Assembly (NCBI RefSeq): GCF_056746865.1
Contig: NZ_CM163382.1
Reading direction: 5' to 3' (one strand)
DNA length: 64,000 bases
Each line of letters opens with the position of its first letter. The stretch's first letter is position 1. Below, piece by piece: positions 22,405 through 62,467 of the stretch. The notes below the pieces were generated by a model that had not been told where the DNA came from, did not search any database, and saw only the letters and a program-made list of their open reading frames with translations. The position numbers and the translations under genes were made by a program.

Positions 22405-23112
22405 TGCGCCTATAAGGCTCTCTTACCAGCCGCGCCCTAACAGGCGCACACGATCTGACATTTGCATCCAACTTCGTTACTTACGGCCCGTAAACGGGCT
22501 GCCCGGATAGGGAATCGATAACTGCTCTCCCATTTTATCCTCTTCAAGCTGGTGCTTTATGTAATCCTGTATCTTCGCCGTGTTCTTACCCACTGTATCG
22601 ACGTAGTACCCTCTGCACCAGAACTCCCTGTTCCTGTATTTGAATTTCAAATCACCAAACTGCTCGTAAAGCATCAGACTGCTTTTCCCTTTCAGATATC
22701 CCATAAACCCGGATACGCTCATTTTAGGCGGGATCTCCACAAGCATATGGATATGATCTGCACAGCATTCAGCTTCCAGAATCCGTACGCTTTTCCACTC
22801 ACACAGCTTTCTCAAAATACTGCCTATTGCTCTACGCTTCTCTCTGTAGAACACCTGTCTTCGGTATTTTGGCGCAAAAACTATGTGATATTTACAGTTC
22901 CATCGGGTGTGCGCTAAGCTCTTTTCGTTCCCCATTGGGACCCCCTTTTGATTTCTTGTTTGACACTTGCAGTTGCCAGACCGCAAGGTGTTTTAACAAA
23001 TCAAAAGGGGTTTTAATAACTGGCTCAAAGCTGAAAGCTTTCCGGAACCCCCAGCCTAGCTGGGGGTTTTCTGTGCACAAAAAACCCTCTGTAGTAACAG
23101 AGGGTTTTGTTC
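22405..23112 (-). mobile_element. IS200-like element (IS200/IS605 family); boundaries approximate
   Basis: About 708 bp containing tnpA with an RBS-sequestering stem (22942-23013) and terminal hairpins near 23040-23108; it is unclear whether the outermost hairpin belongs to the IS or to the host. Confidence 0.55.
22477..22935 (-). CDS. tnpA: IS200/IS605-family transposase TnpA (HUH-type)
   Basis: 152 aa from MGNEKSLAHTRWNCKYHIVFAPKYRR with the HxH motif (DHIHMLVEIPP) and catalytic Tyr region; the ORF track begins at a longer upstream start. Confidence 0.85.
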   Translation of the reverse strand: MGNEKSLAHTRWNCKYHIVFAPKYRRQVFYREKRRAIGSILRKLCEWKSVRILEAECCADHIHMLVEIPPKMSVSGFMGYLKGKSSLMLYEQFGDLKFKYRNREFWCRGYYVDTVGKNTAKIQDYIKHQLEEDKMGEQLSIPYPGSPFTGRK

Positions 23113-23130
23113 ATTCATAGTGCAGGGTCA

Positions 23131-23147
23131 AATCATTCCCACTCAAT
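23131..23147. repeat. attL candidate: 17-bp direct repeat AATCATTCCCACTCAAT
   Basis: Identical to 62451-62467, which overlaps the guaA stop codon. Confidence 0.6.
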
Positions 23148-23234
23148 TGTTTACGACAATCATAACCAATTGAGTGATAACATTTTTCCAAAACTTAATT
23201 TTTCTAGTACCGTTTTATATACCGTCACCGGAAA

Positions 23235-23732
23235 TCAGTGCCACGATTTTTGCTTCTTCAGTGAATCGTATTGCTGTTCGCAGGATTCTCCTGCAATCCG
23301 ATACTTTTCAGCCTCAGCTGCTGTTGCGTTGTAAACTCGATTGCTTTCTTCAAGCATGTCGGCGAGCACACCGATGACCTTGCTGGCTGGCGTGCCAGTG
23401 GGGAAAGATCCGGTATAGTGTTCGGCGAGTCGCTTGGTTTTGTCAAGCTCGGCGCGCAGGCTGTCAGCAGCGGCATTAGCATGCTCAGCATCAACACGCG
23501 CCACATCGATACGGGATTGTGCTTCACGTTCAATTTGTGTTTTCTCCTGATCACGTTGTGACCTGGCCTTATCATCAGCCTGTTTCTGATCTTCCTGTGC
23601 CTGCGCATACCCGGCATCGTACTGGCGACTGCCGTGTATATTCCAGGCAACCACTCCGACGGTAAACAGAGCAGCAAGAATCACCACGATAAGCAGTTGT
23701 TTCCAATATGCTTTTACGAATGCCCAGATCAT
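23235..23732 (-). CDS. Rz-like inner-membrane spanin (i-spanin)
   Basis: 165 aa; N-terminal TM helix followed by a charged coiled coil; immediately downstream of the endolysin. Confidence 0.65.
23258..23506 (-). CDS. Rz1-like outer-membrane lipoprotein spanin (o-spanin), embedded in the +1 frame of Rz
   Basis: ORF wholly inside the Rz gene; lipobox LLTAC and a proline-rich mature region. Confidence 0.55.
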   Translation of the reverse strand: MWRVLMLSMLMPLLTACAPSLTKPSDSPNTIPDLSPLARQPARSSVCSPTCLKKAIEFTTQQQLRLKSIGLQENPANSNTIH

Positions 23733-24358
23733 ATAGCCAGCACCTTACTGGCAGTGACGTACCGCGCGCGCCGGTCGTCGATGCCGTTCCGGCCACCATT
23801 GATAATCAGAGTTACACGTGCAATATCACCGGTATACTTCATGCATCCTTTGCTGGCAAAGAACCACGCCGCGCTACGAGCCGCGTATTCGTCCTGCGCC
23901 AGCAGTTCAGGATTCTCCAGCAAGTCCACTTTCAAGCCGTTTCCGCAGTCACGATAGTTATTCAAACCGGTAATCTGGATAAGTCCGCGACCTCGGTAAT
24001 TCCAGCCATCGCCGGGGGCATTGTTCCCCATGCGTTTGCTGTACACCAGATTGGCAATCGCTCTCTGGCGCTCAGGTGGCAATGGTGGTTCACCAGCACG
24101 GCGCCCCAATGCGTTGGCCTGTCCCTGAGTGAGACGCCCAGCCCGAACGAAGTTAGCCAGTCCGCTGACGCTGTAGTTGAAATTTTCCTGCAACCGGGTG
24201 AAACCTCCAGACTCATGCCCGACCTGAGCAATAAACATTGCCTGATCTTCTGGTTTGCTGATACCAAACTCTTTCATCGCAGAAGTTATATGCGAGAACC
24301 AGCGTGCGGCAAGCGCCTCGCTAATACCAGCAGCTCGCTGGAATTGTTTAATCTCCAT
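23729..24358 (-). CDS. endolysin, glycoside hydrolase family 19 (chitinase-like lysozyme)
   Basis: 209 aa from [11 protein letters not shown]; GH19-type motifs ([21 protein letters not shown]). Confidence 0.8.
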
Positions 24359-24656
24359 GTTTAGACCTCGATACTTTGAAAATTTGAACGACGTTACCGC
24401 GCGTTTTAATAACCGCAGCGAGCATGACAGCGTTGATAATGACCTCAGATAAATCCACAGCCATTGGCGTGCGGAACCAGATTGCATAGGCAACACGAAC
24501 CGGAATACTGGCCGCAGCAACAATCAGGAAATAAGCAAGCCACCCCCCCCATCTTCGATGTTGAGATCCGTTACGCCGGAATGTGACAACACGAATTGCT
24601 ATGCCAGTACAAATAACTGCATTGGTGATAAGTAAAAACAGGTCATGCGTTACCAT
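24348..24656 (-). CDS. small membrane protein, putative holin or antiholin
   Basis: 102 aa with 2-3 predicted TM helices; overlaps the endolysin start. Confidence 0.5.
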
Positions 24657-25059
24657 CGTCTTTTCTCCCCGGAATTAACTCGCGTGGATTATCGGAACGG
24701 TGATAGAGCCAGATACCAATTCGCACTGCGACAATTGCTGATACGAATGCGCCAGCAGAGAAAACAATCCCTTTCTCGAACGAGTCCTGCGTGATGGTAG
24801 GGATCAGGCTGGCTATGCCGATAAGAATTGATGCTGCTGGTTTGTAAAAAAGAAGGCCGCAGAGAAAGCTAAGCATCGACAAAAGCACACGACGACGAAT
24901 GGGATACTCTACCGCAGAGGTAACAAAAATTACCGCTCCAGCCAAAGACCCCAAAGCAACCTCGGGAGGAACTCCTGCTATCACCGCCGCCAGAGAAGTC
25001 ATGCTAAGCCACTGATTCAAAGAATCACTGGTTGTCTGAATTGACATGATAAACACCAT
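24643..25059 (-). CDS. membrane protein, putative holin
   Basis: 138 aa with several hydrophobic helices; first gene of the lysis cassette. Confidence 0.5.
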   Translation of the reverse strand: MVFIMSIQTTSDSLNQWLSMTSLAAVIAGVPPEVALGSLAGAVIFVTSAVEYPIRRRVLLSMLSFLCGLLFYKPAASILIGIASLIPTITQDSFEKGIVFSAGAFVSAIVAVRIGIWLYHRSDNPRELIPGRKDDGNA

Positions 25060-25372
25060 TTATTTCACATAAACAACTCCATTAAATAAATGTTTATCAT
25101 ACACAATAAACCATTTATGGATAATTATTACTCGTGATTTTTATGATTATTCGCGCATTTTTCTATCATTTTTATCCAGTGTGCCGTAAAACCACGTCCT
25201 TAAGGGCGTGGATGATGTCAACTGATGATGTCAACTATTGGCTGGCTTTGACTGATATTGCAGGAGTTGTTGGATAAGATTTAAGTGACCGTCAAAGCGG
25301 TCACTTATGAGAAAAGGAAGTTAGACAAAGTGGCAAACAGGCTCATTGATGGCTACGTCAATGACCAAGGTT

Positions 25373-27775
25373 TCATTCAGACTCCAGCAACTCTATCCTG
25401 GCGAGAAGCGCTTCATATTTATCAAGTAATCGAGAGTAGTTCCTTCGTTGCATTGCAGCTTCCATTACCAACATTTCTTCATAACGAATGCCGTAACGGG
25501 AACCAGCTTCTATAGCAGGAGTGATTACCTCACCGGTTTCATCATCTATGACGGCAGGAGTGTCACCCCATTCATCATAACAGATGAAACCAAAGCGATG
25601 AGCATCAAGACCATGCCTTTCGAATGCCTCCACGTACCGTTGAGCAATGGCGCCGAAGTGCCAGCGGGCGCCATCAGCGCCTTTTTCTTTAATCCTATCC
25701 AGATACTTATACTGGACTAGCTGAACCTCTTCTGCGGCATCGAGAATGGCATCAGTCATTAGTAATGGGTCTGATTTGCAAATGGCATCTGACGTGATAG
25801 TGAACGCCGTTTGAGTGAATCCACCAGACCACGGAAACGAACTTGCCCCGCAAGGATAGGTATTTGCCGTGGCAGGACGTATTTGCTTCACAGCAAATAC
25901 GTGCGACGTCATTTCTGCTGTACCAGAACCCGTAACGCCGGGATCTCCACCAGAGACACGTAAAATCCCTGTAGGGACAGATGAGTCCGTCGATGAATAA
26001 AAGCGAATCTGCTGTGCTTCTGCAACACCAGGGTTACATAGCTTAATAGCTTTAGTTGTGAACGCATTAGTATCCGTATCAAATATCCAGTATCTGTTGT
26101 TTGAACCACCATCTATAATAACGTTCGCAAGAGATACACCAACTCGCTGTATATTAGAAATATTGTTAGCATTAGTACCAGCAGTTAACTGAATACCCCT
26201 TGTGCAATTATTTACACGCGAGTTACTAATAGTATTATTAGCAGCAAATCTAGTGCCAGCGGTATTTCCTGTCAGGAGAGTATGCGTAGTGTCCTTACTG
26301 AAGCCTGTCAATAACACCTCATTATTAGTGAACGTACCGTACTGAGCACATGATTTAAAACCGATATAAGGTGTGGTTAAATCCTCAGGAATACCATTCC
26401 ATACCATACAAAAGTTATCTGTAATTACACTATGGTTTCCTCCATTGTTAGACAAATCACCCAACTCTACAGCACTTATGGAAGTATTGAAGTGGTTATT
26501 TGTAACCTGGAACAGGTTACCAACATTGTTTTCAGAAACAACTCCGCGGCGACCAGCAATGATATGGTTACCGAAAACCACAACACCTTCGGTATCGTCA
26601 TGCGCGTACATGAAGGTGTCGAAGTTCTGATAAGAACCATTGACAATATTGATATTCTTTGTTGAGTACAGGTCGAATATTTTACCCATTCGATATGCTG
26701 GTACAGATGTTCCTCCACCAGTTACGTTAACGCCGTCAAATACACACTGACCAGCTCTGCTTAGCTTAAAGACAGTATCAAAAGAGGATTGAGTACCAGC
26801 ATCATTTGACACATCCAGGTCACGAACGATAAGTTGTCGGGCGTATTCGATTCCCCCTGTCCCTAAAAACGTAAGCGCAGTACCCTGAAGTTGCCCGGTA
26901 GCTTTTATCGTGAAATTACGTAAACCAACAGGTTTTCTTACTACAGTCGTACCCGAGTTATCAATGATAAGACCATATCCAGCAGCAAATTTTATTCCGC
27001 ATGTAGCCATGCTTACGCCAAAAACATCACTATAAAAATTAGTTACTGAGATGTCGCTTGAGCAGTTGTATATACGACGAAGCTTAATATCTAGACCAGT
27101 TTCCTTTGCTGCAGTAAAGGCATTGATCAGTGCCAAGGTATCATCAGCATCACCTCCAACAGCGCCAAAATCCTCAGGAGTGAGTGATTCCCTCATTTTA
27201 TCCTGGAACGTTCGGTATACTGCCCCATAACCATACTGAATAAACCAACCAAAACCACCAACAACCCCGGCGATTGCAGCATCGACATAATTACGCATTG
27301 AGCGATTATTTACAGCGTCCTGCTCAAGTGATGGATCTGCAAGGTTAGAAATTCTGTTTTGCTTTGCATCGTAATATTTTGCAAGCAAAGATGGTTTCAT
27401 CAATGCACGTCTGAACCACCCAAAACATTGCTGGATCAGCATCGTCAGGTAGTCAAAGGCATCTTCATGCACTTCGGGAAAAAACTTTCCCTGATTGCGA
27501 AGGTCTGTCTCCTGTACTACATCAAGCACACGATCTATCGTAATTCGCCATCCAGTAGCAAGCGGAGACGGAAGAACCACAGAACCGCCACTATAAGTGC
27601 CCGCCCCAGTTACCGTATAACCGGTATCCAGAACCAATTCTGTTACGTTCCCGTTCAGGTCAGACACCTGAACAACCAGGTCTGATTTTCTGAAAATTCG
27701 AAAAGTATACGGAAACGATGTCGTAACGCCGTTACCTGTGTATTCGTTGTGGTCAACTTCGGTTGAGACCGTCAT
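25373..27775 (-). CDS. tail fiber / tailspike with C-terminal intramolecular-chaperone (peptidase S74-like) domain
   Basis: 800 aa; central region rich in N/G/T/S repeats typical of beta-helix receptor-binding domains; C-terminal segment resembling the auto-cleaving chaperone of endosialidase-type fibers. Confidence 0.75.
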   Translation of the reverse strand: MTVSTEVDHNEYTGNGVTTSFPYTFRIFRKSDLVVQVSDLNGNVTELVLDTGYTVTGAGTYSGGSVVLPSPLATGWRITIDRVLDVVQETDLRNQGKFFPEVHEDAFDYLTMLIQQCFGWFRRALMKPSLLAKYYDAKQNRISNLADPSLEQDAVNNRSMRNYVDAAIAGVVGGFGWFIQYGYGAVYRTFQDKMRESLTPEDFGAVGGDADDTLALINAFTAAKETGLDIKLRRIYNCSSDISVTNFYSDVFGVSMATCGIKFAAGYGLIIDNSGTTVVRKPVGLRNFTIKATGQLQGTALTFLGTGGIEYARQLIVRDLDVSNDAGTQSSFDTVFKLSRAGQCVFDGVNVTGGGTSVPAYRMGKIFDLYSTKNINIVNGSYQNFDTFMYAHDDTEGVVVFGNHIIAGRRGVVSENNVGNLFQVTNNHFNTSISAVELGDLSNNGGNHSVITDNFCMVWNGIPEDLTTPYIGFKSCAQYGTFTNNEVLLTGFSKDTTHTLLTGNTAGTRFAANNTISNSRVNNCTRGIQLTAGTNANNISNIQRVGVSLANVIIDGGSNNRYWIFDTDTNAFTTKAIKLCNPGVAEAQQIRFYSSTDSSVPTGILRVSGGDPGVTGSGTAEMTSHVFAVKQIRPATANTYPCGASSFPWSGGFTQTAFTITSDAICKSDPLLMTDAILDAAEEVQLVQYKYLDRIKEKGADGARWHFGAIAQRYVEAFERHGLDAHRFGFICYDEWGDTPAVIDDETGEVITPAIEAGSRYGIRYEEMLVMEAAMQRRNYSRLLDKYEALLARIELLESE

Positions 27776-28744: not shown

Positions 28745-28753
28745 AACACTTCC

Positions 28754-31228
28754 TTATTGCGGAGTGACATCCTGAGGTCGCCACCAGTATGTCTGGTTAA
28801 ACTCTTTCTTCGAACGTTGCTCCATTTTACGCAAATAGCCTGGTGAAAAATACTCCTGCATCTGGTTAAAGATCATATGATCGAGAGCCGCCTTTAAGTA
28901 CCAGAGATTCGCACCTGGCATCAAACCTTTCCCCAGCTTCACCAGATCACCACCAGTCTGCTCACTCTTCCCTTCCACAGCATTTAACGGTATGCCCTGA
29001 GCAATCTTCACTACGTCATCAACCAGACCAGCTACCGGGCCAAGCATCGACGCCAGCGCGCCGCTTCCGTACCTAGTGTGATCTGACAATAAAAAGTCAC
29101 CGTAAAGGCCAAGACCACCACCTTTCAGTAGAGCACCAAGCCAAAATTTAGCAGCATCTTCTCCTGTCATCTCGCGAGGATTACGACCAGACGCAAGGTC
29201 GTTAAGTTGCTGCGACAAAGCGCCAAGAATGGTCGTACTGGCAATAAACGTCGCAATATATGCCGCACGCCCACCAGCAGACGGCATACCCATAGCGCGT
29301 GACCAGTGACGCATAACCACCGAGATAGGGAACGATTTAAACAGGAAAACACTTCTCGTTAATTCACCTTTCCATGTTCCACGCTGAATACCAGAACCGG
29401 TTATCAGTTGCTCACGTGCTCCCGGTGTAATAACAGCCATATCAACTTCTTCAGTTACGGCACCGAGCAGTTTACGCATTGCCTCAAATTTCACGCGTTC
29501 AGGCTCACCAAGATGTTTAACTGCTGAATCAGGGATACGCATAATGCTTTCCGGTGTCAGCATCGTATTATTGCCGTTCCCCCAGTCCTCCTGTTGCGCC
29601 AGCTTCCATACGCTCCAGTCTGTGTCAGTAATCCCTTTGCTTTTCAGGATACGAAAATCAGAATCATCGAGGCTACGAAGGTCTGGTGTCCGTGACACTA
29701 CTTCTCCCAGGCTTCCCATCATGGTTACGCCATAGGCGCGCTTGTGCGCATCTGACCATGCTGTAAGCCCACTGGCACGCATTACCGCCGTTGCAGCCCA
29801 ACGAGACACAGACGGCCCCATATTATCCATCGCCCAGCGGTTAACGCTGCCAAGTAGAGATTCCATCGCCAGACCAGCGCGGCGCGCCCGCGCAAGTTCT
29901 GTACGGTTCGTTGGGTCCATAGCTTCAAGCTGGTTGCGGAATAACTGGTTCATTGGAAGGTTGGTAACCTTCGCAGACAGATACATGGTTCCAAGATCAG
30001 AGAACGATGACAGCAACGCGGATCCGAGTCTGCTGGCAACCAGCCAGTTGCGGATATTGTCAGACCATCGCGCGATGTGCGGATTCGCTACAGGCTGTGT
30101 CTTTCCGGAAATAAAATTGTACAGATTCTCTGTGTTGTTCGCCAGCCGCTCGACTTTACCGGTTTTACTCGGGTTAGCTGTTGCCGTTTCTGCCTTCACC
30201 TGATCAAGAAGAGAGCGGAAAACATGATCGGGGTTTGGGCCATATGTTTCCACCAGTGCAATATCTTTACTGATACCTTCAAGGTGACCGACCATGATTT
30301 CCCATAGAGAGCGATCGCCATAAAGTTGCTGATATTGCAGATAGGAATCTGCATCTTTGAAATGTATCTGTCGTGATGCATTACCACGGTTAGCACGTGC
30401 GCCGGAAATTCGCATTCCGGTATCAGTAAGCTTATTCAGCCCACCAGTAGCGATCGTGTTATAAGCCTCTCCAAGAAATGCAGACAACTCGGCATCGTTC
30501 ATCAGTTGTCCATCGGCTCGGGTATAATATTTGCGATCCAGCTTACCTATAACATCGCTAACCCATTTATCTTTTGATACCGCCCCAACCTTTTCCATAG
30601 AATGATGTTGAGGGATCCCCCAGTTTTCGAGATAGCCAATGTCCCCACCAGCATCATTAAACCGGCGGCGCAGCAGCTCTGTAACTTCTCTCCACGCCTT
30701 AGCACCTTTTCTTGCTTTAGCATTGCCAGTATTTTGCCCCCGCATTTCATATACCAGGTCACGTACGCCCGCTTCATCTTCAAACAGACCAAAAAAGCGA
30801 GGATCAACTGCTTCGAATGCCTCCTGCAATTGACTCAATGCATAATCACGGGTGGCTTTTGTTCTGGATTCAACAGAGAGGAAATTCGATTTACCGTCTG
30901 CATTAAAAGCAATAGTACGGTTAAGAGCGCCAAGTTTCCCATCAGCCCCTTGATAGCTATTGATAAATTTATCCAATCTCTGACGTGCGGCTATAGTGAG
31001 GGCCACACGACGTTTCTTTAATGCCGCTTCTCGCTGTAATTCTTCAGATGCCAATTGTGCTGCACGATACAACCGTTCTGATTCGGAAAGTTGTCGCCAC
31101 GACATCGGGTCATCACGAGCAATGGAGCGCATATTTCGATAAATGCGGTCTTCAATGTTCTGTATTTCTCGCGCCGTTAACGTGCGCTGCGCCGCCTGCT
31201 GGACCGCTTGTATACATTCCTGTCTCAT
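28754..31228 (-). CDS. large virion-associated protein (internal virion / ejection protein candidate)
   Basis: 824 aa; placement within the structural gene block. Confidence 0.5.
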   Translation of the reverse strand: MRQECIQAVQQAAQRTLTAREIQNIEDRIYRNMRSIARDDPMSWRQLSESERLYRAAQLASEELQREAALKKRRVALTIAARQRLDKFINSYQGADGKLGALNRTIAFNADGKSNFLSVESRTKATRDYALSQLQEAFEAVDPRFFGLFEDEAGVRDLVYEMRGQNTGNAKARKGAKAWREVTELLRRRFNDAGGDIGYLENWGIPQHHSMEKVGAVSKDKWVSDVIGKLDRKYYTRADGQLMNDAELSAFLGEAYNTIATGGLNKLTDTGMRISGARANRGNASRQIHFKDADSYLQYQQLYGDRSLWEIMVGHLEGISKDIALVETYGPNPDHVFRSLLDQVKAETATANPSKTGKVERLANNTENLYNFISGKTQPVANPHIARWSDNIRNWLVASRLGSALLSSFSDLGTMYLSAKVTNLPMNQLFRNQLEAMDPTNRTELARARRAGLAMESLLGSVNRWAMDNMGPSVSRWAATAVMRASGLTAWSDAHKRAYGVTMMGSLGEVVSRTPDLRSLDDSDFRILKSKGITDTDWSVWKLAQQEDWGNGNNTMLTPESIMRIPDSAVKHLGEPERVKFEAMRKLLGAVTEEVDMAVITPGAREQLITGSGIQRGTWKGELTRSVFLFKSFPISVVMRHWSRAMGMPSAGGRAAYIATFIASTTILGALSQQLNDLASGRNPREMTGEDAAKFWLGALLKGGGLGLYGDFLLSDHTRYGSGALASMLGPVAGLVDDVVKIAQGIPLNAVEGKSEQTGGDLVKLGKGLMPGANLWYLKAALDHMIFNQMQEYFSPGYLRKMEQRSKKEFNQTYWWRPQDVTPQ

Positions 31229-31233
31229 TTAAT

Positions 31234-33036
31234 TTAACCTCTCAAGAAACACGCCACAGCAACATCAAACAGGCTGGAATCCTGTATTGCCTGCTCACTT
31301 TCCCTGTTCGCTTCATCCAGTACTTCACGCGCACTGCGCGATTGTGGATTACCATCATCATCCAGCACGGTGATTATCATGTCAGGTGATTCAAGCAGCG
31401 AGTCTTCAGCTATGCGCAGATCAATATCTCCTGCCTGATCTGACATCATTTTTTGTTCTGCCTGTTGCAATATTTTATCAGGCTCAAAAGGAGCTACTTC
31501 GTCTGGCGTCCTGACCTCTGCTGTTTTATAGAATGAAACAGCCTGAGCATTAAGTTCACTTTCTGCCTGCTGTCTCCGAGCCAGTTCTGCTCGAGCTTCA
31601 AAAAACTGACCGCCAGGCTCGTGCGGTGCCAACGCGTTACGGGAAAATTCCAGGCGTTCTTGTGCCTGCCGGATTCGTTGATCAATATCGCGAAGTCTGG
31701 CCTGTTTATCTGATCGAGCACGAGACAAAGCTTTACCGCTACCGGTTGGCTCTTCTGCAAGAATTTGTGCACGCTGTTCAGTGAGATTTTCAATAATTCG
31801 TTGGCTATTAGCGATTTCAGACTGGTAAACCTGTCTATCTCCACGCGGCAAAAGCTGCGCGGCCTGTTCTTCAAGCAACCGATTTTCTATAGCGCGCGCC
31901 GTTACTCCATCATCTACAGATGACAGAGCCTCATTAACTGCCTGAGACAGCAGACTCTTGCGCCCAGGAATTTCACTGAAAGATGCAGACTCAACAATGC
32001 TGGCAACGTCTACAGGTCTCCCCTGGCTAACATCAGACATAGCTTTTCGCAGAGCCTGAATGTGAGAATTGCGCGAAAGCACGTTGATCGGCACGCCGGG
32101 CGCAATATCAATTTCAGCATGATGAGCGGCATTCGCCGCCAGTGCAGCATCGATATCAACTGGTGAAAAATTTGGTGCGTTTGTAGACTCGCCGCGAGAG
32201 TTAATAAATCTGCCGACACCACCAAACGCCACCCCAAGAACAGCATCAATAGCAATTGCCTGTCGATCCAACACATCATACTGGTTAGCCATTTCGCTAT
32301 AGCCACCATCACGAAGTGTTTTTGCAGTAAGCCCACGCTGTGCCATACCGAACGCAATATTTGTACCTGCGGCATAGGCAATATCTGGCGTTGCACGTAC
32401 TGCTGTTGCTGCGGCGCGTCGCACTGAACTCTCACCCGTCCGCGCAAGCTGAGCCGCCACACCTTCCGCCAGCGCACCACCAGCACGTAACCCGAGGCTC
32501 ATAGGGATCAGCGTTCCGGCACCAGCAGTAATGCCCTGCACTAATCCCGCTTCCTGCGCCGTCCTGAAATCAACACCCTGTGCTGTCAGCCGTTCAAACT
32601 CAGAAAAACCCTGTAGCGAAGTTACCGCCGCTGCACCTCCGACAGGACCACCGAGCGTTGTACCGACAACAGCCTGCCCGCCCATATCGAACAACCCATA
32701 AAGAACCTGCCCGGCGGTTCCAGTTGTCGCGGCATCAGGCGTCAGCCGCTTAACCTGCTGCTCTGCTAGTTTTCTCTGCTCGGCAATGTATGAAACTGAA
32801 GTATCATTGAGCGAGGTGTTTTCGTTAACAAACTGAGCAATCGGGGATACGATTTTATCCATCCCTGCCCATAGCAACTGATCTGGCTTTGCCACCAGCC
32901 CGGAGTACAAACCAGACAATGCCGCTCCTACAGCATTGTCGAAAAAACCAACATCGCTGTTAAAGCCAGCTGGATTTGATGCTGCTTCGTCAAGCTGCTG
33001 ATTCTGGTTTACTGGATTAAGGCCAAAGTAACTCAT
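31234..33036 (-). CDS. virion-associated protein (internal core / ejection protein candidate)
   Basis: 600 aa; Ala/Gly-rich central region; translationally coupled to its neighbours. Confidence 0.45.
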   Translation of the reverse strand: MSYFGLNPVNQNQQLDEAASNPAGFNSDVGFFDNAVGAALSGLYSGLVAKPDQLLWAGMDKIVSPIAQFVNENTSLNDTSVSYIAEQRKLAEQQVKRLTPDAATTGTAGQVLYGLFDMGGQAVVGTTLGGPVGGAAAVTSLQGFSEFERLTAQGVDFRTAQEAGLVQGITAGAGTLIPMSLGLRAGGALAEGVAAQLARTGESSVRRAAATAVRATPDIAYAAGTNIAFGMAQRGLTAKTLRDGGYSEMANQYDVLDRQAIAIDAVLGVAFGGVGRFINSRGESTNAPNFSPVDIDAALAANAAHHAEIDIAPGVPINVLSRNSHIQALRKAMSDVSQGRPVDVASIVESASFSEIPGRKSLLSQAVNEALSSVDDGVTARAIENRLLEEQAAQLLPRGDRQVYQSEIANSQRIIENLTEQRAQILAEEPTGSGKALSRARSDKQARLRDIDQRIRQAQERLEFSRNALAPHEPGGQFFEARAELARRQQAESELNAQAVSFYKTAEVRTPDEVAPFEPDKILQQAEQKMMSDQAGDIDLRIAEDSLLESPDMIITVLDDDGNPQSRSAREVLDEANRESEQAIQDSSLFDVAVACFLRG

Positions 33037-35546
33037 TGCGGAATATCTCCGGAGAATCTCTGACGCTTCTGTGTCAGATTAAGAACAACGGGAGAACCAT
33101 CATCTTTCAGCAGATAACCAGTACCAAGTTTCACCAGGTACTGACTATCGCCGTAACTTTGCAAACCATACTGACCAGGCGGTGTTTTTATCCCAGAGCC
33201 GACAACTTGTTCATTCCAAGCCTGATTAACCTGCTTATCGAATTGCTCTGCAGACATTCCCCACGGCAAAAGGACATTCCCCATTCCGTTATAGTCATGC
33301 ACGCCACCTGTAGCTACGTTAACAGCCTGTTTCCAGACATCATTGTCAATTTCGCCTGATACCACGCCTTTTTTCGCCATCACACCAGCGTAATAATCCT
33401 TTGCGATCTCGTATGCCATTGATGCCCCCTGAGCGTCACCAGCAAATGCATCCTTCACCATGTCAGAAAACTCAAGGCGAAGATCAGCATCTTTAGGCAT
33501 CGGAATACCTTTCGCATCATCAGTACCTTTACGAGCCGCCGCGCCAGCAAGAATTGTCTGCGCAGCGGTTTCAGGAGACACGGAAACATCCGGATTAAAC
33601 CAGTTTTTTTCTGCCAAAATACCACCTGGCTTATCCATCAGTATCCCGGCAACGGCAGCAGATGGAGCGTTGGCACTGATCTGCTGTAGTGCTGACATAT
33701 ACACCTGCCCACCACCAGTGCTCTGCCTGATGGTATCTAGATATGCTGCCTGTTGGGAAACGGGCGCATCACGAAAGAAAACACCGATCTGATTGGCCTC
33801 GTCTTTGGAAAAGAACGTCAGTGGAGTGCCATATGACTTAGCAAGGTCACTGACCTGAGCAGCACGCAAGGCAACGCTCTGTCCAAAGTTATCCTTATTG
33901 CTCATGTCGATAGGCTTTGTCTGTCCGGCGGCAAGAGAGAACTGTACAGGATCAGCCTGTCGCTGCTTTATCACCTGACTTGCAGCCGACACAACGTTGT
34001 CATAAAGAGCGGCTCGTGCCGCATAACCCTCCCCTGTCTCACCAGTATCCGGGCGTAATTGCTCAACATATGCTGTAATGCTGCTTGTCGGCATGTTGCG
34101 GAAAGAGCCTATATACTGTCCGGCGATTTGCGTATTTCTGAACTCGGTATATCGCAGGTTTCCTTCTCTTACTCCATAAGCTGCAATAAAATCAGCCTCA
34201 CCAGGTGGGTTAGGAAATTCAACGCCACGCATATACGCAGCTGTCGCATCGCGAACCTGGCTGTCAATCATCGTTTTATATTCAGCCTGCTGCTGCCGAC
34301 GCAGTTGATCCGCCTGTCGCATAAAACTTGCCTGCGCCTCAGGAGATGCCGCATCGAATGCTGCATTACCGGTATAGCGTTTGGTGTTGGTTGGAATTGT
34401 TGATAAACCAAGTGCTGCACTGACACCAGCAGTTAACTGCTGATCACTGTATGGCTGGCTACCGTTCTCATGATGGATAATGGCTGCACAAAGCGCCTTC
34501 AGGGTATCAGGATTAGATGCATCGAGAGGCTCATCAGCAGAAACGCCAAGTTGTTCGCACACTGCTTTGATATACGACATAGTGTCATTTTTATCAGCAG
34601 GCGGTGCCCAGCGATTAATTATCTCGCTGACGGTATCAATACCCTGCCTCTGATACGACATCAGGTTCCGCCCTAATGCACGAATCCCGTGTTCAGGTGT
34701 TTCGAATTTAGCAAATCGACCATCATCACCGGTCTGGCCTACCCACGGATTAGTTTTGCTGTATTCGAGATTTCCTGGGTTATTGTTGCGTATGCCACGG
34801 GCACGCTCGGAAGAGTCACTATCTGCTACAGCACGGCGAGCTCCAGCAGCAGTATCACTTAACTCGCCATTACTTTGGATGAATGCGGTCGCATTGTTTG
34901 CCGACCACTGGGACAATGCAGCATCAGCAACCTTCTCTTTAAACTCGATTTTCTTGGCCTGGATTTGCTCGTTGCTCCAGCCATGTGCAACACCGTACTC
35001 CTCAATTTGCTGGAAAGTTTGTTTGTTAGCCAATACGTATGCGGCGTTGTCGCCATACAATGCTGCGGCATTTTTACCATTGTTCAGCAGTGTCGCCTGA
35101 AACTGGCCTTCTTCGTAGGCATTAATTTGCCCTATCTCGTGTCGCCCGGCCTGCGTAGTGAACTGAATGCGCTGCTGCTGCGCCTGCTGCATGAAAGCAT
35201 TACGAGCCTGTTCATCCGGCAGCGACATAGCCAGTTGTTCGACCTGAGCATCAAACTGCTGCGTATACTCATGGCCTTTTCCAATAGCATTTTTCCCTTT
35301 CAGGTTAAGCAATCCTGTTTCAGGATTATTCAGCAGATCGCTGCTTATCTGACTGAGGTTAAGAGATGCCTCCTGAGCCAGAGCGATATTGGCACGCTGT
35401 TTTGCCTGCCCCAAAACATCAATTGCCTCTGTCCCTGCCCGAACAAAAGCATCACCAATACCTTGCTGAGAAAACGTCTGCAAGCCTGCTGACTGAACTC
35501 CACGACTCTCAACCTGACGTCCGGATACTGTTGGTACGACTGGCAT
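33033..35546 (-). CDS. large internal virion protein with a possible peptidoglycan-hydrolase-like segment
   Basis: About 837 aa from the ATG at 35546, which overlaps the upstream gene stop; segment GIRNNNPGNLEYS...FAKFETPEHGIRALGRNL resembles a phage virion-associated cell-wall hydrolase motif (recalled, not searched). Confidence 0.45.
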   Translation of the reverse strand: MPVVPTVSGRQVESRGVQSAGLQTFSQQGIGDAFVRAGTEAIDVLGQAKQRANIALAQEASLNLSQISSDLLNNPETGLLNLKGKNAIGKGHEYTQQFDAQVEQLAMSLPDEQARNAFMQQAQQQRIQFTTQAGRHEIGQINAYEEGQFQATLLNNGKNAAALYGDNAAYVLANKQTFQQIEEYGVAHGWSNEQIQAKKIEFKEKVADAALSQWSANNATAFIQSNGELSDTAAGARRAVADSDSSERARGIRNNNPGNLEYSKTNPWVGQTGDDGRFAKFETPEHGIRALGRNLMSYQRQGIDTVSEIINRWAPPADKNDTMSYIKAVCEQLGVSADEPLDASNPDTLKALCAAIIHHENGSQPYSDQQLTAGVSAALGLSTIPTNTKRYTGNAAFDAASPEAQASFMRQADQLRRQQQAEYKTMIDSQVRDATAAYMRGVEFPNPPGEADFIAAYGVREGNLRYTEFRNTQIAGQYIGSFRNMPTSSITAYVEQLRPDTGETGEGYAARAALYDNVVSAASQVIKQRQADPVQFSLAAGQTKPIDMSNKDNFGQSVALRAAQVSDLAKSYGTPLTFFSKDEANQIGVFFRDAPVSQQAAYLDTIRQSTGGGQVYMSALQQISANAPSAAVAGILMDKPGGILAEKNWFNPDVSVSPETAAQTILAGAAARKGTDDAKGIPMPKDADLRLEFSDMVKDAFAGDAQGASMAYEIAKDYYAGVMAKKGVVSGEIDNDVWKQAVNVATGGVHDYNGMGNVLLPWGMSAEQFDKQVNQAWNEQVVGSGIKTPPGQYGLQSYGDSQYLVKLGTGYLLKDDGSPVVLNLTQKRQRFSGDIPQ

Positions 35547-36091
35547 TATAATCCTCCGGGTAATCTGGTTCCTGCTGCTGCCCCGATTGGCGCAGGAGTG
35601 CTTTGAGTAAACGGACTCCACGTCCCACCAAACATCTGGTACGCACCGTATGCCTTCAGAGGCGCAGTGAGCAATGTTGTTGCTGCTCCCACATTCCCCT
35701 GTTTACGGGCTGAACTGGCTTCTGCTTTATAGTTGGCAGCCTGAACCTGATAACCGTAAGCCTCGCGTTGCGCGTTATTCACCGTCGTCAGCGAATCAAG
35801 AGCGCCAAACTGGGCAGTGTCGCCAAATATATCCAGCGCGTTACCTGTAGATAAATCAGCGCCGGTAGCCCCCATTGTCGCCGCCTGTGTACCAAGCCGC
35901 TGTCGGGTCTCTCTGCGTCGTTGCTCAGCTTCAGCGTTACCTCTGTTTATTGCATCATTTGCCTGAGATGTGGCTATATCTGCGTTCGCTTCTGCAACCT
36001 TCGAGGCATACTTTCCCTGTTGGTACTGGGTGTATGCCTGAATGCCACTCATGGCGAGCATTGCGCCACCAGCAATAACCGGATCGCACAT
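35546..36091 (-). CDS. internal virion protein (T7 gp14-like size and composition)
   Basis: 181 aa, Ala/Gln-rich. Confidence 0.4.
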   Translation of the reverse strand: MCDPVIAGGAMLAMSGIQAYTQYQQGKYASKVAEANADIATSQANDAINRGNAEAEQRRRETRQRLGTQAATMGATGADLSTGNALDIFGDTAQFGALDSLTTVNNAQREAYGYQVQAANYKAEASSARKQGNVGAATTLLTAPLKAYGAYQMFGGTWSPFTQSTPAPIGAAAGTRLPGGL

Positions 36092-36555
36092 TATTTTCTC
36101 TCCATGTGAAATCTGTGGAAATTAAGACCAAGAGCACCATAAGGCGCGGCTTCTTCAAGCCTGAATCCAAGCCAGTGCAGCCATGCTTTGGCAACATGGT
36201 TTCGCTCGTCGACGTAGTTTTCCAGGCGCGGATAAACTGCCAGCATCTGCTGCAATACAGGGCGGCAGTGGCGCAGAAATGTCTTCTGATATTTTTCAAT
36301 ACGGCTGGTTCCTACCAGCCAGGGCGTACCATTGCCACCGATCATTGACGCCGGAGATACACCAAACATGGTTACCAGTTCTCCGTTCGCGAACCCTGAC
36401 CAGGCCATAGTCGCAGTGCGAAGACCAACGCGCAGCGCATCTTCGGTAGTCATCAGCGATACCGCATACAGTTCGTCAATATCAGCCTGACGAACATCCG
36501 GCAAAATCATCTGAAGATGCTCTTCGGTAGCGGGAATAATTTGAACATCGATCAT
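36091..36555 (-). CDS. hypothetical virion-module protein
   Basis: 154 aa; start overlaps the upstream stop. Confidence 0.4.
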   Translation of the reverse strand: MIDVQIIPATEEHLQMILPDVRQADIDELYAVSLMTTEDALRVGLRTATMAWSGFANGELVTMFGVSPASMIGGNGTPWLVGTSRIEKYQKTFLRHCRPVLQQMLAVYPRLENYVDERNHVAKAWLHWLGFRLEEAAPYGALGLNFHRFHMERK

Positions 36556-54091: not shown

Positions 54092-54322
54092 TCATGAGTA
54101 GAAGAAGTATGCCAGTTCTGCTTTTGAGCGCAGCCATTGTCTTGTTTTACAGGCTTTAAAAAGCCCATTCATCAATACCTTACCTGGCATTTTGCGCTTG
54201 CCTGTTAAGTGAGTCTGGATATAGTGACTCGTCGTTCCGGCTTCCTGTGCGAAGGCTTCACGCTCATCCGGAGTAAGTGCAAGCCAGTGCTTTTTGAAAT
54301 CGAAATGTCCGTTATCGCTCAT
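54092..54322 (-). CDS. Cro-like HTH regulator
   Basis: 76 aa, divergent from the cI-like gene, with operator-like repeats in the shared intergenic region. Confidence 0.55.
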   Translation of the reverse strand: MSDNGHFDFKKHWLALTPDEREAFAQEAGTTSHYIQTHLTGKRKMPGKVLMNGLFKACKTRQWLRSKAELAYFFYS

Positions 54323-54476: not shown

Positions 54477-55061
54477 ATGAAAAGTATCCAGGACGTCCGC
54501 AGGCAAAATCTCAACGACTTGATCGACCGTGAATTCAATGGTGTTCAGACGCGGATGGCAGAAAAACTTGGAACTCAGGCAAATCTGGTAAACCGCTGGG
54601 CTCTTGGCAAGAAGGTTATCGGCGACCAGGTTGCGCGAAAAATTGAAGCTGCCGCCAATAAACCCCGTAACTGGCTTGATATCGATCGCTCGCTTTCTCA
54701 GGAAGGTTTTCAGCCTGTCGGCCCAAGCGACATTGGTCAGCTGGCGGCTCACAACCTGGAACGCTGGATGAGCGAAAGCCGCGACCTTTCAACACAGGGA
54801 AAACTTCACCGCGCATCCGGCGTCGCCCAGGTGACAATCAGCCGCCTGTTAAACAATGAGGTCAGCGTTTCCATTTCCACCCTGGAGAATGTTGCATCCG
54901 CATTCGGGCGTCACGGATATGAACTACTGATTCACCCGCACGACCCTGCGACTATCAACTATGACCGCTCACGCTACGCATTGTTACCCGAAACCGAGAA
55001 AGCAAAGATCGAAAGTTACATTGAATTTGTCATCAACCAGAACGAAAAAAGCAAACAATAA
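54477..55061 (+). CDS. CI-like repressor with two XRE-type HTH domains
   Basis: 194 aa; two HTH-like segments (QTRMAEKLGTQANLVNRWALGKK and RASGVAQVTISRLLNNE); divergent from the cro-like gene. Confidence 0.6.
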   Translation: MKSIQDVRRQNLNDLIDREFNGVQTRMAEKLGTQANLVNRWALGKKVIGDQVARKIEAAANKPRNWLDIDRSLSQEGFQPVGPSDIGQLAAHNLERWMSESRDLSTQGKLHRASGVAQVTISRLLNNEVSVSISTLENVASAFGRHGYELLIHPHDPATINYDRSRYALLPETEKAKIESYIEFVINQNEKSKQ

Positions 55062-58459: not shown

Positions 58460-58708
58460 ATGAAAGGTGCATTAGGTAAGAAGGAACTCCTGGCGGTGGT
58501 GCCACTGTCATGGAGCACTATCGACCGTATGGAGCGCGCAGGGGAATTTCCTAAACGCTGGTATATCACTGACAAACGCTGCGCATGGAACCGTGACGAA
58601 GTTGAGCGTTGGCTTGATGAACGTCAGGCAGCAAGCCCGGCAGAGTTCCAGGGTAAAAAACCTCCTGTTCAGCAACGTGTATATCGTCCCGTGAGCAACG
58701 CTGCATGA
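58460..58708 (+). CDS. AlpA/Xis-like small DNA-binding protein (excisionase candidate)
   Basis: 82 aa; AlpA-like HTH region (LAVVPLSWSTIDRMERAGEFPKRWYI). Confidence 0.55.
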   Translation: MKGALGKKELLAVVPLSWSTIDRMERAGEFPKRWYITDKRCAWNRDEVERWLDERQAASPAEFQGKKPPVQQRVYRPVSNAA

Positions 58709-60005: not shown

Positions 60006-60329
60006 AATCACGCCTGACGAATCGCGATTATCTCGCTATTGGTATTGCAGAGATTGCTGGACTCAATGGCGCATGATTTGACAATGCCGCCAGAGCTATC
60101 GCATACTGACCGCACTAGAAAACAAACAGCGGTCATCCGCACCCGATAGCTTTGCGGCTTTTTTATGCCTGCAATCTGGCATAGTCACATCCGTACAAAG
60201 GTCGGGTGGAGAGGCGTAATACAACACCCGAAAGGGGAATATGCCCGGAGCTACTGTTTGTGCTCTAGTTGACACCCGATCACCAGCTACTAACTGGTTT
60301 TCGTAACTAAAAACAAACAGGAGGTCATC

Positions 60330-60980
60330 ATGACCAGTCAACTCATCCCCGTATTCAACGGCACTATATCCAACGAAACCGCTCTTCTCGTTAATGCCCG
60401 TGATTTACACACTTTCCTCGATGTGGGTAAGCGATTTGCTTCGTGGATTGTCGAACGAATTGCTGAATATGGTTTCGTTGAAAATCAAGACTTTATGATT
60501 ATTTCCCAAGTTCGGGAAAAAATAGGCAGAGGCCGTCCTGCAAAAGACTACCACCTCACCCTCGATACAGCCAAAGAGCTGGCGATGGTCGAGCGTAATG
60601 AAAAAGGTCGTCAGGTACGACGCTACTTCATTGAATGCGAGAAACGTTTAAGACAACAAGAAACAAAAGTGGAGAAGGTCTTGTCAGGCTTCATGCCCGC
60701 CATTATGGAGGCGATCAAGCTGGAAGACAAAAAAGAATACAGTGCCCCACTGAAGCCCGGCTACCGCAGCCTGATTCACTCGCCGTCTGGTGTTCTCGGC
60801 CTGACGGAGCACTCACTGCTGATGAATCTGCTGAACCAGTTACAGGACGACGGGCACGACGTATCGGGCGCGGCGGCGGAGCTGACCACCATGTTCTGCT
60901 ACATCGTCGGTGTGAGCAAATGCCTGCGTGATATCCAGACTCACGCGGAGTACATCAACGACAAGGCAGGATTCTTCTGA
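60330..60980 (+). CDS. antirepressor-like protein (Ant/Bro-N-type N-terminal domain), function uncertain
   Basis: 216 aa; strong Shine-Dalgarno (AGGAGG) and TTGACA at 60259-60264; N-terminal region resembles phage antirepressor families. Confidence 0.4.
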   Translation: MTSQLIPVFNGTISNETALLVNARDLHTFLDVGKRFASWIVERIAEYGFVENQDFMIISQVREKIGRGRPAKDYHLTLDTAKELAMVERNEKGRQVRRYFIECEKRLRQQETKVEKVLSGFMPAIMEAIKLEDKKEYSAPLKPGYRSLIHSPSGVLGLTEHSLLMNLLNQLQDDGHDVSGAAAELTTMFCYIVGVSKCLRDIQTHAEYINDKAGFF

Positions 60981-61011: not shown

Positions 61012-62262
61012 TTATTCCCCCGCCATCCACTTCTCAAACTTCGACGGGGAGAACGGAATCAGATCCGTATGCTCCCCGTTAATCCAGGAATCAATCATAT
61101 CGGACCACTGCTGCAACATGTAGGCGCGCTGTCTGGCGTATTCCGCTTTGTTATATACGGCGCGCACACCTTTCTGCTCATGTGCCAGAGCCTTTTCAAT
61201 CCAGTCTGAAGGATAACCAGCCTCATGCAACAACGTACTGGCTGTACGGCGCATATCGTGTACGGTGAAGTCCTGAATATGCTCACCATCTTCATTTATT
61301 ATTTTCACCGTTCTGTCGATCAGAGAGTTCAGCGCGGCATTAGATAATGGCTTCCGGAAGTTGTAACGACCAGGAACCAGATATTCACTTCCACCAGCGC
61401 ACATCTGCAACCCAACCAATATATCCTGAGCCTGTTTAGGCAGGTAAATAACGTGCGCCCGGCTTCCCTTCATGCGGTCTGAAGGAATTGTCCATGTCCA
61501 TTTTTTAAAATCTATTTCGTCCCACGTTGCATTAGTGAATTCGCCTTTACGAACCATAGTGATAAGCACCAGCTTTAAAGCCATTTTCATAGTGCCCATA
61601 GCACCAATGGCATCCAGCGTGCGGAAGAACAGGCCAATTTCTTCTGGTGTCAGTGTTCGCTCTCGTGGTTTAAATATGGCGATAGACGAAGGTTTAATGT
61701 CAGCCGCAGGATTAAACAAACCATGACCACGGTCATTGGCGTGACGGTATACGCTACTGATGATCTCCCTGGCCTGCACTGCTGTTGCCCGGCCACCGCG
61801 TTCGACAATCCGGTCACACAAATCACGAACCATCGATGTGGTAATTTCAGCCATCATTTTATTGCCAAGAACCGGAAGTATGTCACGGTCGATCACCGCC
61901 TGTTTCATTGCGCGGGTACTGTCAGCCAGGATGACGTGTTTCATATAACTGTCGGTATGTACCGCAAACGTCTCGGCACCACGAATCTTTTTGATACCGT
62001 CACGTTTAGCCGCAGCCGGTGACTGGCCTGCTTTAAGCAGCTTCTTTGCAGCAATCAGTTCTTCTCGCGCTTCTGCCAGGCTGATACCGTCACGCCCATA
62101 CTGCCCGATTACCAGTGTTTCGCGGCGACCGTTGATACGGTAGTCATAGCGAAACGAGACCGTGCCTGACGTAAGCACAGCTACATACAGCCCGTCACGA
62201 TCGGAGACCTTGTACAGTTTGTCCTGCGGCTTGAGGTTTTTTAATTTTGTATCGGTAAGCAC
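61012..62262 (-). CDS. int: tyrosine integrase (P4-like, with N-terminal arm-binding domain)
   Basis: 416 aa; N-terminus MLTDTKLKNLKPQDKLYKVSDRDGLYVAV typical of arm-type DNA-binding domains; C-terminal catalytic region (HDMRRT...AHEQKGVRAVY); adjacent to the att repeat. Confidence 0.85.
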   Translation of the reverse strand: MLTDTKLKNLKPQDKLYKVSDRDGLYVAVLTSGTVSFRYDYRINGRRETLVIGQYGRDGISLAEAREELIAAKKLLKAGQSPAAAKRDGIKKIRGAETFAVHTDSYMKHVILADSTRAMKQAVIDRDILPVLGNKMMAEITTSMVRDLCDRIVERGGRATAVQAREIISSVYRHANDRGHGLFNPAADIKPSSIAIFKPRERTLTPEEIGLFFRTLDAIGAMGTMKMALKLVLITMVRKGEFTNATWDEIDFKKWTWTIPSDRMKGSRAHVIYLPKQAQDILVGLQMCAGGSEYLVPGRYNFRKPLSNAALNSLIDRTVKIINEDGEHIQDFTVHDMRRTASTLLHEAGYPSDWIEKALAHEQKGVRAVYNKAEYARQRAYMLQQWSDMIDSWINGEHTDLIPFSPSKFEKWMAGE

Positions 62263-62303
62263 AATTCACCCGTATAGAAACCATTTTCATGACGGTATGA
62301 GAG

Positions 62304-62318
62304 TATACCTTTAAGGTA
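62304..62318. promoter_or_regulatory. operator-like repeat ATACC-TTTAA-GGTAA upstream of the integrase gene
   Basis: About 42 bp upstream of the int start, between int and guaA. Confidence 0.4.
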
Positions 62319-62387
62319 ATACCGTCACCTGTACCGACGAAAAATATGGTGTAGAGTGAATAGAAATGAATACATAAAAACAAAAAC

Positions 62388-62412
62388 CCTCTGTAAAAAC
62401 AGAGGGTTGAGT
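62388..62412 (-). terminator. hairpin AACCCTCTGT-N5-ACAGAGGGTT downstream of guaA, probably the guaA terminator supplied by the prophage arm
   Basis: Perfect 10-bp stem followed by a T-run on the guaA-coding strand; a near-identical hairpin lies at 23080-23108 at the other prophage end. Confidence 0.5.
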
Positions 62413-62450
62413 TAGTATCTGAATAGGAATGATTTGCTATGAGTTAGCTG

Positions 62451-62467
62451 TTAATCATTCCCACTCA
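62451..62467. repeat. attR candidate: 17-bp direct repeat AATCATTCCCACTCAAT overlapping the guaA stop codon
   Basis: Identical to 23131-23147; encodes the last guaA codons (..IEWE-stop) on the minus strand. Confidence 0.6.

Follow-up and report, generated by a model that had tools for sequence, protein, structure and literature searches.

A phiV10-like prophage at the 3′ end of guaA and the apparent exchange of phage and host terminators upon integration

The window (the whole 64,000-nt stretch of DNA analysed, from contig NZ_CM163382.1) contains a prophage abutting the 3′ end of guaA, which raises the questions of which phage this is, where exactly it recombined with the chromosome, and what becomes of guaA and of its terminator in the lysogen. 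The prophage is flanked by an exact 17-bp direct repeat, AATCATTCCCACTCAAT, present in two copies (0 expected by chance; Table 1); no third copy was found in the window, where a search allowing up to 3 mismatches returned just two weak unrelated matches elsewhere. Read as its reverse complement, the repeat is the attP/attB core attgagtgggaatgatt of phiV10, epsilon15 and ZX5, whose use of guaA with this identical core has been published (PMC9782041). The attachment site that the sequence-only reading had named for epsilon15/phiV10-like phages is thus on record, as is the guaA 3′ flank as the target of the epsilon15 integrase cluster (PMC8138268).

Table 1. Coordinates of the prophage, its borders and its main features in the window.
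Feature	Position	Strand	Basis or remark
Native host guaA terminator hairpin, 12-bp stem, 4-nt loop, minus-strand T-run	23079-23110	-	fold and sequence
Prophage including both att core copies	23131-62469	-	phage-record matches start exactly at 23131 and stop exactly at 62469
Left att core (attL in window order), lysis-gene side	23131-23147	.	host identity of BL21 and GMM076 stops at 23147
Two ACGGTA(T/C) motifs, likely arm-type integrase sites, lysis-side arm	23207-23229	.	alignment and epsilon15 annotation
Lysis cassette: membrane protein, holin (24348-24656), endolysin (23729-24364), Rz spanin (23235-23732)	23235-25059	-
Tailspike	25373-27775	-	Uetakevirus N-terminal adaptor; C-terminal part like K5-lyase-type tailspikes
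Virion module: portal/adaptor (42832-44511), protease, major capsid (40840-41832), tail and internal virion proteins	28754-44511	-
Phage tRNA-Arg(tct), antisense to late genes	45160-45233	+
Terminase, small (47371-48045) and large (45899-47374)	45899-48045	-	phrog_51, phrog_2; phiV10 p01/p02
Cro-like early regulator	54092-54322	-	phrog_35; phiV10 p41
Prophage repressor, two HTH motifs	54477-55061	+	phrog_8; length as phiV10 p40
AlpA-family excisionase/regulator candidate	58460-58708	+	phrog_66; homologues phiV10 p36, epsilon15 gp33
c4-like small RNA (60200-60289), then anti-repressor ant (60330-60980)	60200-60980	+	Rfam sRNA-Xcc1, 64.8 bits; phrog_377 Ant
Tyrosine integrase, 416 aa	61012-62262	-	PF13356 Arm-DNA-bind_3, PF22022 Phage_int_M, PF00589 Phage_integrase; phrog_1
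Inverted pair TGACGGTAT/ATACCGTCA, likely integrase arm-type sites, integrase-side arm	62290-62327	.	conserved among compared phage arms
Phage terminator hairpin, 10-bp stem, 4-nt loop, TTTTTGTTTTT tail	62382-62408	-	terminator scan and fold
Imperfect inverted core copy in phage arm	62420-62434	.	conserved in most arms
Right att core, integrase/guaA side	62453-62469	.	4859 non-lysogen genomes match the junction from 62453
guaA (GMP synthase), 5′ end beyond the window	62455-64000	-	NF000848, 790 bits; annotation of matches

Alignment to prophage-free strains, which had been proposed as a check, defined attB as exactly the 17-mer: the match to BL21(DE3) runs to the inner end of the left repeat, and E. 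coli GMM076 is identical over 817 of 817 nt (400+17+400) to the window from which the prophage was removed in silico. From the start of the first repeat to the end of the second is 39,339 bp, and the phage genome is 39,322 bp, in line with the 39.3 kb estimated previously; the start given there, 23080, lies in host DNA, and the prophage itself begins at 23131. The same integrase-guaA junction is present in 567 of 5426 complete E. coli genomes (~10%). An older phage relic to the left of attL was considered and rejected, as 21074-23078 is an IS2 nested in IS200C and holds no third core.

Within the core lie the final four codons of guaA (I-E-W-E) and its stop codon, plus 2 further bases; the protein ends in ...PPATIEWE, with the stop codon (62455-62457) inside the right repeat, as the sequence-only reading had noticed. 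Since these codons, stop included, fall inside the shared 17 bp, integration leaves guaA intact. As to the further claim, that integration rebuilds the guaA 3′ end from phage DNA, nothing is altered in E. coli because the phage and host cores are identical. A longer phage-derived tract inside guaA, prompted by three clustered synonymous differences from BL21, was ruled out by prophage-free GMM076, which carries the same allele. A lysogen of a host with a TAA-ending guaA that showed TGATT at the right junction and TAA at the left would place the crossover in ATTGAGTGGGAAT and make the stop codon phage-supplied; the right junction of E. marmotae lysogens, sought for mapping the crossover, was not found.

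The gene set assigns the prophage to the genus Uetakevirus. phiV10 and phiv142-3 cover 85-88% of the late half at 97-98% nucleotide identity with equal gene order, and identity to phiv142-3, ZX5 and phiV10 is 97-98% over most of the prophage. The virion module is colinear with, and 97-98% identical to, those of phiV10, phiv142-3, vB_EcoP_ZX5, HEMP4 and PAS61; the structural genes showed 97.9% identity to phiV10 over 19.3 kb (28751-48062) and ~77% to epsilon15. The major capsid protein is of the epsilon15 type (NF045672 MCP_gp7_epsi_15, E=1.4e-123), and the portal/adaptor matched phrog_332 (E=1.9e-253). Judged from the genes alone, the earlier assignment to a podovirus-like, epsilon15/phiV10-like phage was thereby borne out. 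Salmonella phage epsilon15 shares the genus, the gene order, the att core and a terminator hairpin at the equal place in the att arm, whereas its nucleotide identity is ~77% over half of the genome and its serotype-conversion genes and host differ.

The phiV10 group has the 17-bp attP core, the terminator-bearing arm and the guaA 3′ site identical to those of the prophage. The prophage differs from that group in the receptor-binding part of its tailspike (25125-27188), which is unmatched, in lacking the oac O-acetyltransferase gene between tailspike and lysis cassette, and in several replaced early-region genes; its lysis cassette shows merely 81-86% nucleotide identity to those of phiV10 and phiv142-3. 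Nothing in the phage collection matched the central domain of the tailspike, and the mosaic tailspike probably confers a different host range. The c4 RNA-ant module lies beside int, not in the tail region; phiV10 and phiv142-3 carry isrK and C4 RNA upstream of ant. A search for defence systems among the accessory genes matched only a known phage methyltransferase. int lies on the minus strand, as do the late and structural genes.

The integrase shows 99.5% amino acid identity to phiV10 Int and 86.8% to epsilon15 Int. Its sequence contains R238, H-D-M-R and a C-terminal H...Y. It belongs to the epsilon15 integrase cluster (guaA-targeting, IntSXT subgroup), with arm-binding, core-binding and catalytic domains present and integration at the guaA 3′ flank with the core attgagtgggaatgatt. 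The integrase gene had been placed directly beside attR, and 190 bp separate its start from the right-hand repeat, equal to the integrase-core distance reported for ZX5, whose integration and excision catalysis have been demonstrated by experiment (PMC9782041). The epsilon15 record marks the GTGACGGTAT motif, which recurs in the inverted pair of the integrase-side arm, as an integrase binding site.

That the prophage is a defective remnant, no longer excising or making particles, would find some support in its mosaic early region, at least 80% of which is covered in 1 of 5426 genomes, and in the split integrase of the close relative phiv142-3. This is nevertheless quite unlikely, given that neither att core has a flaw, int has its full length of 416 aa and is near-identical to that of phiV10, the prophage interior is without IS elements, and the excisionase candidate, repressor, terminase, portal, capsid, tail and lysis genes have the lengths of their phiV10 counterparts. 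By its gene content and borders, the prophage is an intact temperate phage of the phiV10/epsilon15 type at its published site.

The sequence-only reading had described a near-identical hairpin by each repeat. There are indeed two copies, but the 5-nt loop in that description matched nothing in the window; the correct pattern, AACCCTCTGT-N4-ACAGAGGGTT, was found at 23083-23106 and at 62385-62408 and nowhere else (0 expected), so that the second copy lies ~3 nt off the interval 62388-62412 given for it. Both hairpins fold strongly and have the form of intrinsic terminators, a G+C-rich stem-loop with a U-run right behind it on the transcribed strand, and look like terminators acting on the guaA strand. 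The host copy folds in its context at -24.2 kcal/mol (z -4.05) with a 12-bp stem that includes A-U pairs ahead of the U-run. It was not called by a simple terminator scan, probably because the A/T pairs lengthen the stem and consume the T-run. As its plus strand is T-rich too, it is probably bidirectional, serving yfgI also. For the phage copy, in the integrase-side att arm, the records of phiV10 (26781-26813) and epsilon15 (26795-26824) give a rho-independent terminator, and its primary role is predicted to be that of the phage's own late-operon terminator. Next to it, the inverted core copy and the core form a predicted 15-bp RNA stem enclosing the guaA stop codon, a putative structure that could alter guaA mRNA processing in lysogens.

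The hairpin is not a generic repeated element, as it is present once, at guaA, in 5404 of 5426 E. coli genomes and once more in lysogens. Native guaA sites of relatives were recovered via YfgI homologues, and homologous hairpins were found at prophage-free sites of E. marmotae and Citrobacter portucalensis, adjoining yfgI in S. bongori, and in many lysogen host flanks where guaA ends in TAA. Among the 19 phage arms compared, the 5′ half of the stem never varies, and the 3′ half does so only with sense-strand G-U pairs kept. The spacer between core and hairpin is 44 nt in the phage and 24 nt in the host, with no mutual similarity; the spacers being dissimilar, it is the hairpin alone that argues for common descent of the two arms. 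The proposal that the phage att arm mimics the guaA terminator stands in that the same stem is native to E. coli and its relatives and occurs in all arms examined, but mimicry is inseparable from shared ancestry. No mention of the phage-host terminator resemblance was found in the literature searched.

The origin of the shared stem may be read in either direction. If the E. coli guaA terminator had itself come from an ancient Uetakevirus arm, as a relic of a lost prophage or by gene conversion, one would expect what is seen in E. coli, where the stem equals that of the phage while the E. marmotae, Citrobacter and S. bongori versions have diverged; E. albertii likewise carries, beside yfgI, ~85 nt identical to the arm of another guaA-targeting element, relic-like and without an integrase. 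This direction is nonetheless rather unlikely, since homologous hairpins occur in several host lineages at native TAA-ending sites that lack the phage-type core (not TGATT), which fits vertical inheritance in the hosts; moreover, the phage spacer has left no trace in the E. coli spacer, and none of the 5426 genomes bears a deletion scar from hairpin-to-hairpin recombination. Conservation of the hairpin in Escherichia, Citrobacter and other enteric hosts, together with its near-invariance in 19 of 19 arms, favours an old host-derived copy of the CCCTCTGT type in the phage arm. Most likely, an ancestral phage acquired or retained a copy of a conserved enterobacterial guaA terminator, the direction of transfer being what we infer.

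The invariant 5′ half of the stem in all 19 arms, despite diverging surroundings, together with the IHF site that the epsilon15 record predicts to overlap the stem-loop, could instead point to an extended att site, that is, a DNA element that integrase, IHF or excisionase would recognise in attP and attB alike, rather than a pair of terminators. We regard this as very improbable: Uetakevirus prophages are integrated beside unrelated guaA hairpins (CCCCCG...CGGGGG, GCCCGC...GCGGGC or AT-rich), the core-to-hairpin distances of phage and host are unequal, and G-U pairs are kept on the sense RNA strand alone, indicating a role at the RNA level. The hairpin is, on these comparisons, dispensable for integration.

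The explanation that accounts for the locus, and that very probably holds, is integration of a phiV10-like Uetakevirus by its own P4-type tyrosine integrase at the known guaA attB, with exchange of terminators. Recombination inside the 17 bp common to phage and host left a copy at each prophage end. In phage and host alike, the core lies between a gene end (Rz or guaA) and its predicted intrinsic terminator, in shared orientation, and because it separates gene end from terminator in both, integration would exchange the terminators. guaA of the lysogen now has the predicted phage late-operon terminator 44 nt downstream of the core, where it would shield int from guaBA read-through, while the host hairpin, now downstream of Rz, would serve the phage lysis operon. 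Whether swapping is a built-in design, in which selection has maintained an old guaA terminator copy in the arm such that guaA is terminated, int insulated and the lysis operon host-terminated, is a tentative reading to which we give somewhat less than even credence.

Elements that insert at the 3′ ends of tRNA or protein genes by P4-type integrases carry a replacement 3′ end, as reviewed by Campbell and by Williams; att identity extends as a block from the crossover as far as the target gene's end, so that this gene is kept intact, and the integrase gene adjoins attP. Compared with such elements in general, the target of this prophage is protein-coding and the element, besides the gene end, brings a terminator resembling that of its target. 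A second family of guaA-targeting islands (Providencia L023 and IMG/VR L146) shares the core and has an integrase with a related N-terminus (MLTDTRLRHLKPKEKLYKV... versus VLTDTKLKNLKPQDKLYKV...), but its arm repeats differ (TCTGGCA) and its cargo is non-phage. These islands have their own intrinsic terminator ~45 nt past the core, different in sequence (GCCCGCGTAACTGCGGGC). A terminator at this distance in two unrelated guaA-targeting families suggests what may be a general rule for insertion past strongly expressed genes.

The phage genus and its integrase cluster were already known, as were guaA as the target and the exact att core; the terminator copy and its proposed swap are mildly new. 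The value of the analysis is mainly a clean annotation, which fixes the exact borders, shows guaA to be intact and describes the tailspike as a mosaic, and phage biology gains little from it. The swap, if transcript mapping confirms it, would show how a gene-end inserter may keep the gene and its transcription unit whole and at the same time guard its own integrase from read-through.

The prophage at the guaA 3′ end is flanked by two exact copies of the 17-mer AATCATTCCCACTCAAT, the att core, where none is expected by chance, and a search of the window for further copies with up to 3 mismatches returned only two weak, unrelated matches. guaA lies on the minus strand on the right side of the window, with its 5′ end beyond the window edge, and its product ends in ...PPATIEWE*; its stop codon falls within the right repeat, as the sequence-only reading had claimed. 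In E. coli BL21(DE3), which lacks the prophage, the sequence between yfgI and guaA agrees with the window as far as 23147, after which it runs straight on into guaA. The empty site of prophage-free E. coli GMM076 was identical (817/817 nt) to the left flank, one core and the right flank of the window, and GMM076 is the better control because its guaA allele and IS200C are those of the window. The same integrase-arm-core-guaA junction was found in 567 of the 5426 complete E. coli genomes, and in the remainder the match begins exactly at 62453. Three synonymous guaA differences from BL21 (L001) within 10 nt of the core (AGTCGCTGGTGG vs GGTAGCTGGCGG) were considered as a recombination tract and rejected: they are a strain allele, which GMM076 shares without having the prophage. 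On the left, IS200C lies between yfgI and the guaA terminator, one end abutting the terminator A-run at 23078 and the other containing a nested IS2 with a 5-bp target duplication (TGCGC); without IS2 and one duplication, the sequence here was identical to GMM076 over 1411/1411 positions.

Judged by its sequence, the element is a phiV10-like Uetakevirus. Phage matches start exactly at 23131 and stop exactly at 62469, and in megablast against phage genomes, phiv142-3, HEMP4, ZX5, PAS61 and phiV10 covered 85-88% of the late half at 97-98% identity and 57-75% of the early half. Direct alignment gave 97.9% identity to phiV10 over 19.3 kb, colinear with its terminase-to-virion module, and the terminase, portal, capsid, tail protein, repressor and integrase genes have the same lengths as in phiV10. 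Family searches identified an epsilon15-type major capsid protein, terminase, portal/adaptor, holin, endolysin, Rz, repressor, a Cro-like protein and an AlpA-type excisionase. Arm-DNA-bind_3, Phage_int_M and Phage_integrase domains make up the integrase, which shares 99.5% identity with phiV10 Int and 86.8% with that of epsilon15. The proposed epsilon15/phiV10-like affiliation therefore held.

The prophage is a mosaic. Its lysis cassette shows just 81-86% identity to those of phiV10 and phiv142-3, it lacks phiV10's oac O-acetyltransferase gene, and genes of unknown function have taken the place of parts of the early region. A defence-system search of the accessory genes returned only a phage methyltransferase. 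The receptor-binding part of the tailspike found no match in the phage collection. For the central part of the protein (approximately residues 230-570), no relative was detected in 50,697 phage records; its C-terminal ~220 residues are 46-49% identical to K5-lyase-type tailspike ends. In phiV10 and phiv142-3, isrK and C4 antisense RNA lie upstream of ant in the tail-gene region, whereas in the window the whole module adjoins int. In the GenBank record of phiv142-3, the equivalent of the phage tRNA is annotated on one strand, whereas Rfam finds it there on the other.

Coordinates of features in the window
Feature	Coordinates	Strand	Remarks
IS200C	21035-23078
IS2	21074-22404		nested in IS200C
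IS200C tnpA	22477-22986	-
IS200C STnc490 leader RNA	22945-23068
Host hairpin	23083-23106
Prophage	23131-62469
Left core	23131-23147
Inverted copy, left	23140-23156 with 23160-23176		imperfect
Tailspike gene	25373-27775
phiV10-colinear segment	28751-48062
Phage tRNA-Arg(tct)	45160-45233	+	71.7 bits; antisense to late operon
c4-like small RNA and ant	60200-60980		Rfam sRNA-Xcc1, 64.8 bits; RNA directly upstream of anti-repressor gene ant
Phage hairpin	62385-62408
Inverted copy, right	62420-62434 with 62453-62467		imperfect
Right core	62453-62469
guaA stop codon	62455-62457	-
guaA allele differences	62470-62481		synonymous

The duplicated hairpin of the sequence-only reading, AACCCTCTGT-N4-ACAGAGGGTT, does occur in exactly two copies in the window (0 expected), although its loop had been read one base too long, as N5, and its second copy placed about 3 nt off. 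On the minus strand, the sense strand for guaA and the phage late genes, each copy folds into a strong stem with a T-run after it. The phage hairpin was called by a terminator scan, and the reference records of phiV10 and epsilon15 already list it as a rho-independent terminator; the epsilon15 record also marks predicted sites for integrase and IHF in its surroundings. The host hairpin (12-bp stem; folded context -24.2 kcal/mol, z -4.05) was not called, probably because A-T pairs extend its stem into the T-run. The order in the circular phage is Rz, core, 44 nt, hairpin, ~120 nt, int, and that in the host is guaA, core, 24 nt, hairpin. As both gene-core-terminator units have the same orientation, integration swaps the terminators: in the lysogen the phage terminator, placed between guaA and int, would now end guaA, and the native guaA terminator would end Rz. 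This geometry is directly visible; that transcription actually terminates at the hairpins, we infer. Both phage arms also carry imperfect inverted copies of core parts. For the lysogen, folding predicts a 15-bp RNA stem over the stop codon, formed by the integrase-side copy and the guaA end (-37.2 kcal/mol with the terminator included), and this stretch overlaps an RNase III site that the epsilon15 record predicts.

Of the 5426 E. coli genomes, 5404 carry the host hairpin. Each has one copy, lysogens having the phage copy in addition, which led us to reject a generic repeat. Among 19 distinct Uetakevirus arms, from phages or lysogens of E. coli, Salmonella, Enterobacter, Citrobacter and Superficieibacter, no variation was seen in the 5′ half AACCCTCTG, and the 3′ half has only variants keeping G-U pairs on the sense strand. 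In E. marmotae (AAAACCCTCTGTTCATCCACTGGAGGGTTTT) and Citrobacter portucalensis (AGCCCTCTATATGACAGAGGGCT), native prophage-free guaA sites, retrieved via YfgI homologues, carry hairpins that are homologous yet diverged; guaA ends in TAA in both, which leaves the phage-type core incomplete. A related hairpin lies beside yfgI in S. bongori. Phage and host have the hairpin alone in common, their spacers being unrelated. The most economical reading is that the hairpin is an old, conserved enterobacterial guaA terminator of which the phage arm holds a copy; transfer in the reverse direction, by which the host would have fixed a relic of the phage, is the less likely alternative. In many lysogen host flanks from IMG/VR, AAACCCTCTGT...ACAGAGGGTTT follows a TAA stop. 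Terminators in other hosts are unrelated, so the hairpin is not required for integration. No deletion scars from hairpin-to-hairpin recombination were found in the 5426 E. coli genomes.

Because guaA ends in TAA in many enteric hosts (compared loci L254, L256 and L258-L317), just 13 nt of the core (ATTGAGTGGGAAT) match the phiV10-type attP there. The TAA-type core also occurs in some Uetakevirus-like phages themselves. These observations suggest a crossover within the first 13 nt of the core and, in such hosts, a guaA stop codon that comes from the phage; left and right junctions were not seen together in a single genome. A second element family targets guaA with the same core and a related integrase; its arm starts TTCGCGTCTGGCA and has its own terminator, GCCCGCGTAACTGCGGGC, ~45 nt past the core. 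Second-family arms were found in L023, L146, L148, L161 and L193, with the integrase in L023 and L146, and as the arm only in L040, L042 and L126. In L146 this element is in tandem with a Uetakevirus prophage. In E. albertii, the first ~85 nt of the arm adjoin yfgI without an integrase and look like a relic.

The core is the reverse complement of attgagtgggaatgatt, published as attP of phiV10 and epsilon15 and shown for ZX5, by PCR and sequencing, to be attP and attB at the guaA 3′ end, 190 bp from the integrase start (PMC9782041); the distance in the window is equal. TL-2011b is also inserted in guaA (PMC3293862), and targeting of the guaA 3′ flank has been described for the epsilon15 integrase cluster (PMC8138268). 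The kind of element, its insertion site and the core sequence are therefore already known, in line with the attachment site named in the sequence-only reading; the initial observation is confirmed and its interpretation supported. A search of the accessible literature found no discussion of the guaA/phage terminator homology and swap, which constitute a small comparative addition.
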